A program made the translations under genes and the position numbers. 64,000 nt of DNA from the sequence record MK562505; one strand, written 5' to 3'. The notes below the pieces were generated by a model. That model ran no database searches. It was not told where the DNA came from and saw nothing but the letters and a program-made list of their open reading frames with translations. Origin of the DNA: Shigella phage Silverhawkium. Shown one piece after another: positions 59,723 to 61,232 of this stretch. Numbering within the stretch: position 1 is the first letter of the stretch; the number at the start of each line of letters is the position of its first letter.

Positions 59723-60457
59723 TTATTTGTTAAGTGCATCTTTCATTTCTGGTGTAGAGATAGAGTCAATAACACCAGTCTTACAAGCATCATCAAACCA
59801 GTCTGGTAAGACATTTGCAAGAAAACCGTTAATGTTTGTCTTAAGATACTCAGCCATCAATGCTACTTCATCAGCAATCATCTGTGTGACTTCTGAAGCG
59901 TATGCAGTAATCTTTGACATACCTTCATTAATCGCTGTAACAGCTTGTGAGGCTAAATCTTCGATTGTATCAAGCCCTTGGTCAATTGCATCTTGTAAGT
60001 CGCTTAGAACGCCGTTTACAGCGTCTATGGAGGTGTTTATAATCTCCATAGCTTTGTTACCATACTCAGTAGCAACTCCCATAATCCCACTGAATGGCGT
60101 ACAACCAACTTGTTCACCTGCTGCTCCCATTACATTAGAGTAGCCTTTTGCCACCTGCATTCGTTGAGAGAACTCATCTACAGATTTCTGACCATACTCA
60201 GTCAGTGTAGTGGTTGTTGAAGTTGTACTGCCAAGACTTGTTGTGAAGCTACTTAAGAGTGCTGCTGTTAATCCAGCCGCAATAAGCTTATCTTGCACAG
60301 TCGGGTCTGTTACGGAACTAATAGAGTTTACTAATGACTGAGAGGCAGCAATTGTACCACCAAGGACTGCTGCACCAGTAATAAGAGGGTTTGAGAAACC
60401 ATTACCAGTTTTAAGGAGATTAAAAATCTCTTTACTTTGTTCTGTCATCTCTTTCAT
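59723..60457 (-). CDS. membrane protein embedded in the tRNA array
   Basis: 245 aa from MKEMTEQ (TAGGTG RBS); two hydrophobic segments, Ser/Thr-rich stretch, acidic helical C-terminal domain. Confidence 0.5.
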   Translation of the reverse strand: MKEMTEQSKEIFNLLKTGNGFSNPLITGAAVLGGTIAASQSLVNSISSVTDPTVQDKLIAAGLTAALLSSFTTSLGSTTSTTTTLTEYGQKSVDEFSQRMQVAKGYSNVMGAAGEQVGCTPFSGIMGVATEYGNKAMEIINTSIDAVNGVLSDLQDAIDQGLDTIEDLASQAVTAINEGMSKITAYASEVTQMIADEVALMAEYLKTNINGFLANVLPDWFDDACKTGVIDSISTPEMKDALNK

Positions 60458-60473
60458 TATGCACCTATAAAGT

Positions 60474-60546
60474 TGGTAGCCCATCGGGATTTGAACCCTG
60501 TTCTCATGTTTTTCAGACAAGCGCTTTAACCATATAAGCTAATTGA
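60474..60546 (-). tRNA. tRNA-like element, isotype unresolved (possibly aberrant)
   Basis: acceptor pairing and TTCAAAT T-loop present; no canonical anticodon stem or D-stem found. Confidence 0.3.
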
Positions 60547-60547
60547 G

Positions 60548-60624
60548 CTATTAAATTGGGGTGACCTACGGGAATCGAACCCGTATAGACCATGTTCACA
60601 GCATGGGTCATTATCCATTTATGA
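60548..60624 (-). tRNA. tRNA-His (anticodon GTG)
   Basis: anticodon stem CCATG/CATGG, loop CTGTGAA; T-loop TTCGATT. Confidence 0.7.
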
Positions 60625-60664
60625 TAAGGCCACATTTAAGGACTCTCGTAAGAACCCTTAGAAG

Positions 60665-60740
60665 TGGCAGCAGTATAAGGATTTGAACCTTAATCTTTCA
60701 GCTTCAGAGGCTGGAGCATTGCCAGTTATGCTATACTGCT
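60665..60740 (-). tRNA. tRNA-Gln (anticodon CTG)
   Basis: anticodon loop CTCTGAA with one stem mismatch; T-arm TAAGG/CCTTA. Confidence 0.55.
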
Positions 60741-60746
60741 AATATT

Positions 60747-60817
60747 TGGTACTCCATATCGGATTCGAACCGATACATAACACAGATTTTAAATCTGGCC
60801 TCTCTGCCAATTGGAGT
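60747..60817 (-). tRNA. short tRNA-like gene, anticodon unresolved (possibly TAA)
   Basis: good acceptor and T-arm (ATCGG-TTCGAAT-CCGAT); anticodon region folds non-canonically. Confidence 0.4.
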
Positions 60818-60827
60818 AATGGAGCCT

Positions 60828-60903
60828 TGGCGGGGGATGATGGAATTGAACCATCTTCTTCGATTTCAAAGACCGAGGTTTTAACCTTGTAAACTAATCC
60901 CCT
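60828..60903 (-). tRNA. tRNA-Gln (anticodon TTG)
   Basis: anticodon stem TCGGT/ATCGA, loop CTTTGAA; A1-C72 mismatch. Confidence 0.6.
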
Positions 60904-60911
60904 ATTAAATT

Positions 60912-60988
60912 TGGTGCAGAATAGAGGATTCGAACCCCTAACAAACAACTTCGTAGATTGCTGTTCTATCCATTTGAACTAATTCTGC
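60912..60988 (-). tRNA. tRNA-Arg (anticodon ACG)
   Basis: perfect acceptor GCAGAAT/ATTCTGC; anticodon loop CTACGAA. Confidence 0.6.
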
Positions 60989-60989
60989 A

Positions 60990-61232
60990 TTATCCGATAA
61001 GGACACCATAAAGTTTTAACTCTTCATTAGTGTCTCTTCTGCTTAAGACTGACTCTCTAAAATCTTTAGCAATATTCTTTCGAGATTCCTGTCTAGCTCT
61101 CTTCTTATCTCTTCTGAGAAAGCGTTTACGATGGTCTGTACGCCATTTGTAATAATCTTCTTCACCATCATGTGCTGCACAGCAGCCACAACTTGCAATT
61201 TCAACTTTACCGTGTCTACCATAAGGTTTCAT
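60990..61232 (-). CDS. small basic Cys-containing protein within the tRNA array
   Basis: 80 aa; SCGCCAAHDGEED then Arg/Lys-rich segment. Confidence 0.4.
   Translation of the reverse strand: MKPYGRHGKVEIASCGCCAAHDGEEDYYKWRTDHRKRFLRRDKKRARQESRKNIAKDFRESVLSRRDTNEELKLYGVLIG

Follow-up and report, generated by a model that had tools for sequence, protein, structure and literature searches.

A conserved DUF7217 gene and a chimeric small open reading frame within the tRNA array of the Mooglevirus-like phage Silverhawkium

The sequence of Shigella phage Silverhawkium analysed here (record MK562505; a stretch of 64,000 nt, taken as a whole and called the window below) ends in a minus-strand array of 24 tRNA genes, which ARAGORN delimits at 59546-63896 and which fills the final ~4.4 kb. 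Two open reading frames (ORFs) are embedded on the same strand in this array. The first, at 59723..60457 (-), encodes a protein of 244 aa that belongs to the Pfam family DUF7217, and the second, at 60990..61232 (-), a basic protein of 80 aa with a CxCC motif. The region matches 291 phage records, with Shigella and Citrobacter members of Mooglevirus (Ounavirinae) coming out on top at 92-93% identity. The window is that of a Mooglevirus-like member of the Ounavirinae, the relatives of Felix O1. An earlier, sequence-only reading had described both ORFs as protein-coding genes wedged between tRNA genes; this observation is confirmed, and the interpretation attached to it holds in part. Annotations of both genes, as encoding proteins of unknown function, already exist in relatives, and ORFs among tRNAs are ordinary.

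The DUF7217 gene lies directly downstream of tRNA-Phe(GAA) (60474..60549, -). The 16 nt read between the CCA end of this tRNA and the ATG of the gene (60458..60473, -; ACTTTATAGGTGCATA) contain a Shine-Dalgarno-like AGGTG at 60462-60466, 4 nt ahead of the start codon, and a ribosome-binding site is annotated at the matching site in phage Michonne. The stop codon, TAA at 59725-59723, is separated by 2 nt from tRNA-Ser(GCT) (59628..59720, -), after which comes tRNA-Cys(GCA) (59546..59621, -), the final tRNA of the array. The ATG of the 80-aa ORF likewise follows a spacer of 16 nt, which begins at the end of tRNA-Leu(CAA) (61249..61326, -) and includes a Shine-Dalgarno-like AGGAG; its stop codon, also TAA, ends 1 nt before tRNA-Arg(ACG) (60912..60988, -). 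The start of the larger ORF at ATG 60457 stands as first proposed, and the proposed length of 245 aa becomes 244 aa, the additional codon being the stop. A program-made ORF list extends this frame to a TTG (59723-60520, -) that lies inside tRNA-Phe.

The 244-aa protein matches DUF7217 (PF23854) over its full length, with E = 1.2e-82 and 277.6 bits vs a cut-off of 29, residues 7-242 corresponding to profile positions 1-237 of 238. It also matches phrog_2114 at E = 1.3e-106. In a translated search the gene was found in 584 phage records, and it is essentially full length in 582 of them. When compared with five relatives, it shows a ratio of non-synonymous to synonymous substitution rates (dN/dS) of 0.08-0.12 at a dS of 0.7-1.1, with zero indels, and its substitutions relative to Felix O1 pile up at third codon positions (37/21/110). 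The sequence-only reading had named frameshifted homologues as a sign that the ORFs are not conserved; in view of the lack of indels, none is observed for the large ORF. It is a genuine gene, a core gene of the Ounavirinae and a full-length DUF7217 member, so that the earlier description of its function as simply unknown was an understatement: the protein has a Pfam and a PHROG family, and is annotated in hundreds of genomes.

A profile search of 1.84 billion cluster representatives returned 77 matches at E <= 0.001, most of which are 220-290 aa long, stand alone and match once over their full length. As judged from these searches, DUF7217 is a small, phage-specific family. Alignments of 10 and 46 sequences revealed family motifs that are all present in the window protein, namely an N-terminal GxxFxNPL, AGLT, a C-terminal LPxWxxDxC...TPxxK and a pair of cysteines. 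Product names in relatives are 'hypothetical', 'putative membrane protein' or 'putative structural protein'. NCBIfam and PADLOC scans gave no meaningful match, and no paper on DUF7217 was found in the literature.

Several other names and relationships were considered for the protein and discarded. The label 'GTP-binding domain' (phrog_289) comes from a match that is restricted to the C-terminal half of a chimeric profile of 500 positions; the SLOG ('GTP-binding') protein has a gene of its own, two positions upstream of the DUF7217 gene, in all genomes that were inspected. phrog_289 seems to combine a SLOG/YspA-like protein with DUF7217 (loci L003 5288-6720, L025 819-2220 and L012 6904-8285), and its name has been passed on to stand-alone DUF7217 genes such as that of vB_CECAV_050. 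A fused protein of 475 aa is on record for Salmonella phage 38, and SLOG and DUF7217 are separate genes in maane, ViI and vB_CECAV_050, as well as in LIMEstone1 according to gene layout. The C-terminal part of the DUF7217 protein is also matched, at 82% identity, by an old UniProt entry of 150 aa present in BFVD (O80222, 'Red protein [Salmonella phage FelixO1]'). A relation to tape-measure proteins was indicated by weak coiled-coil-type matches only (phrog_305, E = 1e-4; tape-measure chains of the PDB, E ~0.03), which we take as compositional. Finally, T4 Inh, a minor head protein and protease inhibitor of 226 aa encoded at a similar genome position, obtained an hhalign probability of 0.2%.

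We modelled the 244-aa protein with AlphaFold2 using the 46-sequence alignment. The model consists entirely of helices, the longest of 57 residues, with a predicted local distance difference test score (pLDDT) of 96.5 and a predicted template modelling score (pTM) of 0.86. The protein is thus predicted, with high confidence, to be a compact elongated bundle of long alpha-helices, and this bundle is without a solved homologue. With the model as query, Foldseek gave no match in the PDB at E <= 0.001. The sequences of all PDB chains, searched with a profile, likewise contained no homologue (the Sf14 entries being covered only if they are in the 2026 copy), and the matches obtained in BFVD were other DUF7217 proteins only. 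The protein has a mass of 25.6 kDa and an isoelectric point (pI) of 4.16; the acidic and helical character and the Ser/Thr-rich stretch (about residues 70-86) noted from the sequence hold.

Two hydrophobic segments had also been noted. They exist, at residues 25-43 and 58-76, and make poor transmembrane candidates. On the simple scale used here, the 19-residue Kyte-Doolittle mean (KD19; usual threshold 1.6), they reach 1.49 and 1.48, and values of 1.62-1.65 are found only in close relatives. In most of the family, including Kolesnikvirus-like, Ackermannviridae and metagenomic members, the aligned segments have a mean of <=0.8. Both segments are packed within the bundle and modelled at a pLDDT of 97-98, although such models are compatible with membrane insertion after refolding, and the N-terminus is not signal-like. 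Since KD19 lies below the threshold and the segments are not hydrophobic in most members, we reject 'integral membrane protein' as a property of the family; the 244-aa protein is probably not a polytopic membrane protein. It could be imagined to sit in the membrane by two transmembrane helices, for instance as a holin-like lysis protein, given that both segments are rich in Ala, Gly and Thr, that relatives carry membrane-protein annotations and that Felix O1 has no firmly assigned holin. The distribution of hydrophobicity in the family, the packing of the two helices in a soluble bundle, the acidic character of a protein devoid of signal peptide and the particle association of a homologue (see below) make this highly improbable.

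Few positions of the family are as conserved as Cys119 and Cys225. Both are present in 39 of the 46 aligned sequences and both are missing from the other seven, which are well aligned around the LPxW motif; no sequence has one cysteine alone (0/46). This co-occurrence is the pattern of a disulfide, which Cys119 and Cys225 probably form, and it hints that the protein spends time away from the reducing cytoplasm.

Evidence on the location of the protein comes from more distant phages. ORF129 of LIMEstone1, a full-length homologue of the window protein (29% identity, E = 2e-29), was detected among the virion proteins by electrospray ionization tandem mass spectrometry (ESI-MS/MS), as a protein of 25.03 kDa represented by 2 unique peptides that cover 18% of it (PMC3296691). 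By comparison, the acknowledged contaminants of this preparation were each represented by 1 peptide and <=4% coverage (PMC3296691). The homologue of phage ViI, Vi01_142c, bears the record label 'phage associated protein'.

We compared gene neighbourhoods at about 15 sampled loci. In the window, the array is followed on its own strand by an ORF of 66 aa (59124-59324, -), located directly upstream of the large terminase gene (TerL), and then by the terminase and portal genes. DUF7217, small ORF, TerL and portal follow one another in this order in Felixounavirus, in Kolesnikvirus, where the DUF7217 gene comes directly after the last tRNA and ahead of the terminase, and in the metagenomic relative L027, whose DUF7217 protein is only 22% identical and whose locus reads tRNA array, DUF7217, tRNA-Ser(GCT), small ORF, TerL, portal. 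In Ackermannviridae, the gene has the major capsid gene on one side and gp3 on the other, and it is preceded by a SLOG-type 'GTP-binding' gene and a small ORF. At four diverged metagenomic loci, a gene with a PAAR motif (Pfam scores of 31-54 bits vs a cut-off of 27) lies at <=5 nt from the DUF7217 gene, upstream of it in L021, L024 and L026 and downstream in L028. Identity is 23% between two of these PAAR-linked DUF7217 proteins and 29% between their PAAR partners. In contractile injection machines, the central spike is capped by PAAR proteins. A context of morphogenesis genes is seen in Ounavirinae, L027 and Ackermannviridae; it is not seen in the rII-linked, EP_H11 and Acinetobacter lineages described below.

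The position of the gene just upstream of TerL in Ounavirinae and L027 raises another possibility, that DUF7217 is the missing small terminase subunit (TerS) of the Felix O1-like phages, in which no TerS has been recognised (PMC3185647). The size and helical content of the protein would be compatible with this role. However, Ackermannviridae encode a canonical small terminase (Vi01_061c) in addition to a distant DUF7217 gene, no TerS structure appears among the fold matches, a homologue occurs in virions while terminases do not, and in other lineages the gene sits beside rIIB or a PAAR gene. We consider this assignment very improbable.

Regarding expression, both ORFs lie on the strand of the tRNAs with spacers of 1-16 nt, sigma-70-like sites are not enriched (9 found vs 10.4 expected from shuffled sequence), and minus-strand terminator-like hairpins occur only after tRNA-Cys, at 59405-59421 and 59371-59388 (59371..59421 in all), ahead of the 66-aa ORF and the large terminase gene, and terminators are annotated at the homologous place in Michonne. 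For these reasons, the co-transcription of both ORFs with the tRNAs proposed by the sequence-only reading is plausible, and the hairpins are likely to mark the end of the tRNA/DUF7217 transcription unit. Processing of the tRNAs would then leave mRNAs with leaders of 16 nt and almost without a 3' tail. No RNA sequencing study of a Felixounavirus was found in the literature.

The DUF7217 homologue of Ackermannviridae is annotated with a late-promoter motif. In these phages, the start codon lies ~4-7 nt past a GC-rich terminator hairpin (L003 ~5950-5995, L012 ~7633-7670, L006 ~4886-4925), whose 3' arm (GGGGGT) is the only Shine-Dalgarno-like sequence ahead of the gene. We did not retain a T4-type late promoter as a general feature: TATAAATA is found in maane and is imperfect in ViI and LIMEstone1, the conserved element being the terminator hairpin. 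In maane, this sequence comes shortly before the hairpin and is reminiscent of T4, in which the ribosome site is exposed only in late transcripts.

The mass spectrometry of LIMEstone1 virions, the PAAR adjacency, the coupled cysteines and the synteny with morphogenesis genes together point to a role in the particle. We tentatively favour the reading, short of calling it probable, that DUF7217 travels in the particle at low copy, in connection with the tail device for puncturing or ejection. The protein would be made in soluble form, would be associated in the virion with this central device of the contractile tail and not with the symmetric shell, and would be released at the cell envelope upon infection. 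A probable Cys119-Cys225 disulfide would stabilise it outside the cytoplasm, and apolipoprotein-like amphipathic helices would allow it to act at a membrane surface.

Several observations weigh against this proposal. The table of virion gene products in the cryo-electron microscopy paper on Sf14, a Mooglevirus, does not include gp26/FDI99_gp131 (PMC11821841), and the whole-phage shotgun list of Felix O1 omits ORF49, the orthologue in that phage (PMC3185647). The same Felix O1 paper lists a 'Gp49' as structural and equates it with a 51-kDa band, considered a candidate sheath (PMC3185647). The ORF49 of the record (L005 6272-7006) encodes a protein of 25.6 kDa, which is incompatible with such a band, and gp63 (48.9 kDa) fits better; 'Gp49' looks like a numbering slip, which later annotations may have inherited. 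Single peptides of rIIB, DNA ligase, PhoH and gp44 likewise came out of the LIMEstone1 virion preparation (PMC3296691), so that the two peptides of ORF129 are possibly carry-over. The disulfide is read solely from the co-occurrence of the cysteines, and a home-made profile of 4 sequences, of limited sensitivity, detected no PAAR gene in the window. The transcript of Felix O1 ORF49 falls in the reverse-transcription PCR (RT-PCR) class that is maximal at 5 min (PMC3185647). Lastly, four contigs of ~180-kb metagenomic phages and one relative of greater divergence have a block in which DUF7217 follows rIIA and rIIB, separated from the latter by 10 nt, and in EP_H11 and Acinetobacter phage 3098 the gene stands among DNA-metabolism and small early-type genes.

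These points lead to the main rival explanation, in which DUF7217 is an early, non-structural protein, made with the tRNAs, peripherally bound to the inner face of the cytoplasmic membrane and working alongside rII-type functions, for instance in lysis timing, membrane integrity or escape from abortive infection. Carry-over would then explain why it was detected in virions, as rIIB itself was, and its omission from the Felix O1 list and the Sf14 table would be expected. The early, DNA-metabolism or anti-defence neighbours in the EP_H11, Acinetobacter 3098 and L021 contexts (NAD ligase, PolX, Acb3, RNase T) agree with it, and so do the membrane-protein annotations of relatives and the weak profile matches of DUF7217 to apolipoprotein-like, Senescence and ApoLp-III families. 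On the other side, the rII linkage is confined to one broad lineage, and a paralogy of DUF7217 with rIIA or rIIB was rejected, no sequence relation being found. A strictly coupled pair of cysteines is hard to explain in a reduced cytoplasmic protein, the PAAR adjacency at four diverged loci indicates the tail tip, and the coverage of ORF129 exceeds that of the contaminants. The 5-min RT-PCR class discriminates poorly because the major capsid gene of Felix O1 belongs to it as well (PMC3185647). For this reason, and in view of the particle-associated homologue and of the late-promoter annotation in Ackermannviridae, the early expression that the sequence-only reading had deduced from co-transcription is not secure. 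Overall, we regard an rII-type function as doubtful, yet as the most serious competitor.

The rII-linked contigs have other features in common. In L015-L019 (metagenomic, ~95-180 kb), the block comprises rIIA, rIIB, DUF7217, a DEDDh exonuclease (Rv2179c-like) and an NAD-dependent DNA ligase, and the genomes of the phages with the rIIA-rIIB-DUF7217 block further include a gene for a multisubunit RNA polymerase beta-prime, which has an intein in one case.

Alternatively, DUF7217 could be a helper of morphogenesis, an assembly chaperone or adaptor for the central spike, the PAAR protein or another tail or head step, that is mostly not kept in the particle. Such a role would account for the PAAR adjacency, for the proximity of packaging and head genes in Ounavirinae and of gp3 in Ackermannviridae, and for the Sf14 work, which gives the protein neither an assigned density nor a listing (PMC11821841); many chaperones and scaffolds are likewise acidic and all-helical. 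It is unlikely in view of the detection in LIMEstone1 virions, of the coupled cysteines, which suggest a life outside the cytoplasm, and of the early RT-PCR class and early-gene contexts in other lineages. The tail-linked, particle-borne reading can also be carried further, with little confidence at this stage: DUF7217 might represent an unrecognised class of cargo that contractile-tailed phages carry at or behind the spike tip, a disulfide-locked bundle of amphipathic helices released into the periplasm at tail contraction that opens at the inner membrane to help form or guard the site of DNA entry, and its mRNA in Felix O1-like phages might be excised from the tRNA precursor by 'tRNA punctuation', an arrangement persisting down to 22% protein identity.

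The 80-aa protein has a different history. It is identical (100%) to gp86 of Silverhawkium and, in agreement with the earlier description, it is basic (pI 9.7) and contains cysteines, at positions 15, 17 and 18. The ORF is confined to Mooglevirus and Suspvirus, only its flanking tRNAs being common to Felixounavirus. Residues 1-56 match phrog_10765 (E = 1.1e-39) and residues 50-80 match phrog_13848 (E = 5.6e-4). At the DNA level, the part kept in Mooglevirus and Suspvirus under purifying selection comprises codons 1-53 and two bases of codon 54 (61072..61232, -; phrog_10765), and DNA alignment sets it apart from a 3' segment of 82 nt (60990..61071, -) that carries the phrog_13848-like tail and the stop codon. 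In such an alignment, the last 28 residues are homologous to a mini-ORF of 32 codons present at the same site in Felix O1 (tails: NIAKDFRESVLSRRDTNEELKLYGVLIG in the window vs SIAKKFRASYLNRRKNKVCEKLYGVLVG in Felix O1). From these comparisons, the ORF is a lineage-restricted chimera of two parts. The 82 nt, which are bounded by a short TGC repeat, are missing from KPS64, Michonne, HP1 and phiSUSP1. In the deleted forms, the frame reads into the tRNA-Arg gene and stops there, giving a product of 70 aa; frameshifted homologues are thus seen for the 3' third of this ORF, as opposed to the large one. The databases hold ~6 long-form vs ~81 short-form sequences.

We interpret the 80-aa product as a small basic accessory protein whose working part is made of the N-terminal ~53 residues, with the CxCC motif and an Arg/Lys-rich helix, the C-terminal tail being dispensable. 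As a guess from its composition, it may bind nucleic acid. In more distant relatives, codons 1-55 display 3-5 non-synonymous vs 9-10 synonymous changes (binomial p ~3e-4 to 6e-4) and a dN/dS of 0.06-0.2, and this third-position-biased pattern holds even among the deleted forms. Against this interpretation, the last 82 nt are gone from most relatives, the N-terminal part does not occur in Felixounavirus, and the AlphaFold model is uninformative (pLDDT 62). The ORF might therefore be considered a decaying or fortuitous frame, a filler between tRNAs rather than a functional protein. Its restriction to two genera, the deletion that runs into tRNA-Arg, the scarcity of the long form, the absence of annotation in Sf14 and HP1 and the lack of a Pfam match would fit such a frame, which would not account for a strong, conserved Shine-Dalgarno sequence, for the selection on codons 1-55 or for the two PHROG families that cover the two halves. 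We find the filler explanation rather unlikely. A copy of the 80-aa protein with 96% identity is recorded as 'hypothetical protein AB2J12_25360 (plasmid) [Escherichia coli]' on a contig of ~90.4 kb (P0043), which may be a Mooglevirus-like phage genome deposited as an E. coli plasmid.

The tRNA array is a hot spot of small-gene gain and loss. It contains gaps at 60904-60911, 61903-62150, 62241-62501, 62578-62824 and 63059-63480, which are occupied in relatives by HNH endonuclease genes (Felix O1 ORF44, 45 and 47; Michonne88) or by a gene of 185 aa annotated 'holin' together with a gene of 75 aa (HP1_24/23, KPS64 gp87, Felix O1 ORF48). In the window, tRNA-Gln(TTG) and tRNA-Arg are separated by just 8 nt, and the other gaps contain no minus-strand ORF of >38 aa. 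Within the 422-nt gap between tRNA-Lys(TTT) and tRNA-Asp, a stretch of 64 nt (63254-63317, -) scores 35.5 bits with the Rfam tRNA model (cut-off 29) and has no ARAGORN call; it is probably a truncated or pseudo-tRNA. A match of 34.7 bits to the permuted transfer-messenger RNA (tmRNA) model at 62698-62885 (-), below the cut-off of 47, overlaps tRNA-Ile and the preceding gap and is probably driven by the tRNA-like part. Beyond the array, the 66-aa ORF is kept across Ounavirinae (Felix O1 ORF51, Sf14 gp130), and an ORF of 87 aa occupies its position in the distant L027; neither of them has a Pfam or NCBIfam match. In its listed, TTG-extended form (88 aa), the 66-aa ORF overlaps a terminator-like hairpin.

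Many phages of the Ounavirinae and Ackermannviridae are used or proposed for typing, biocontrol or therapy of Salmonella, E. coli, Shigella, Erwinia and Dickeya, and DUF7217 shows strong conservation in both of these groups. If the tail-linked reading of DUF7217 is true, a particle-borne entry factor would fill a gap in the understanding of how these myophages cross the envelope, and the PAAR adjacency and the coupled cysteines make this idea directly testable. New in the present analysis are the high-confidence fold without solved relative, the evidence against the membrane annotation, the coupled pair of cysteines, the recurrent PAAR and rII neighbourhoods and the chimeric, 3'-truncated history of the small ORF.

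Comparison with known systems places the DUF7217 gene as follows. Its orthologues in Ounavirinae (Felix O1 ORF49, also Felix01p100 or NP_944879; Sf14 FDI99_gp131; KPS64 gp85; VpaE1 ORF47) encode proteins of 244 aa with 81-91% identity and occupy the same slot, from tRNA-Phe to tRNA-Ser/Cys, upstream of the large terminase gene; they differ from it in nothing material. LIMEstone1 ORF129 and ViI Vi01_142c are alike over the full length, with the same motifs and the same pair of cysteines. As opposed to the window gene, they are sited among head genes and gp3 instead of tRNA genes, have N-terminal segments that lack hydrophobicity, and have a start codon that follows a terminator hairpin containing the Shine-Dalgarno sequence. 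The resemblance to apolipophorin III and other soluble amphipathic bundles corresponds to <11% identity and to scores in the generic range of helical bundles, so that homology is not indicated. In contractile injection systems, including the gp5.4 region of T4 and type VI secretion systems (T6SS), genes are linked to PAAR genes, and in T6SS loci, cargo or adaptor genes abut the PAAR gene. Four diverged DUF7217 genes also abut a PAAR gene; this link is one of gene adjacency, and the home-made profile found no PAAR gene near the DUF7217 copy of the window. Finally, both ORFs resemble the protein genes of other phage tRNA clusters in being tightly packed among tRNAs of the same strand, as are the HNH ORFs 44, 45 and 47 of Felix O1. 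Protein genes are also interspersed in the tRNA regions of T4 (segB) and T5. The window differs from these clusters in that neither ORF has an HNH or GIY-YIG motif, the absence of a Pfam match of this kind having led us to reject a homing endonuclease, the usual occupant of phage tRNA arrays, and in that the DUF7217 gene is a stable core gene and not a mobile one.

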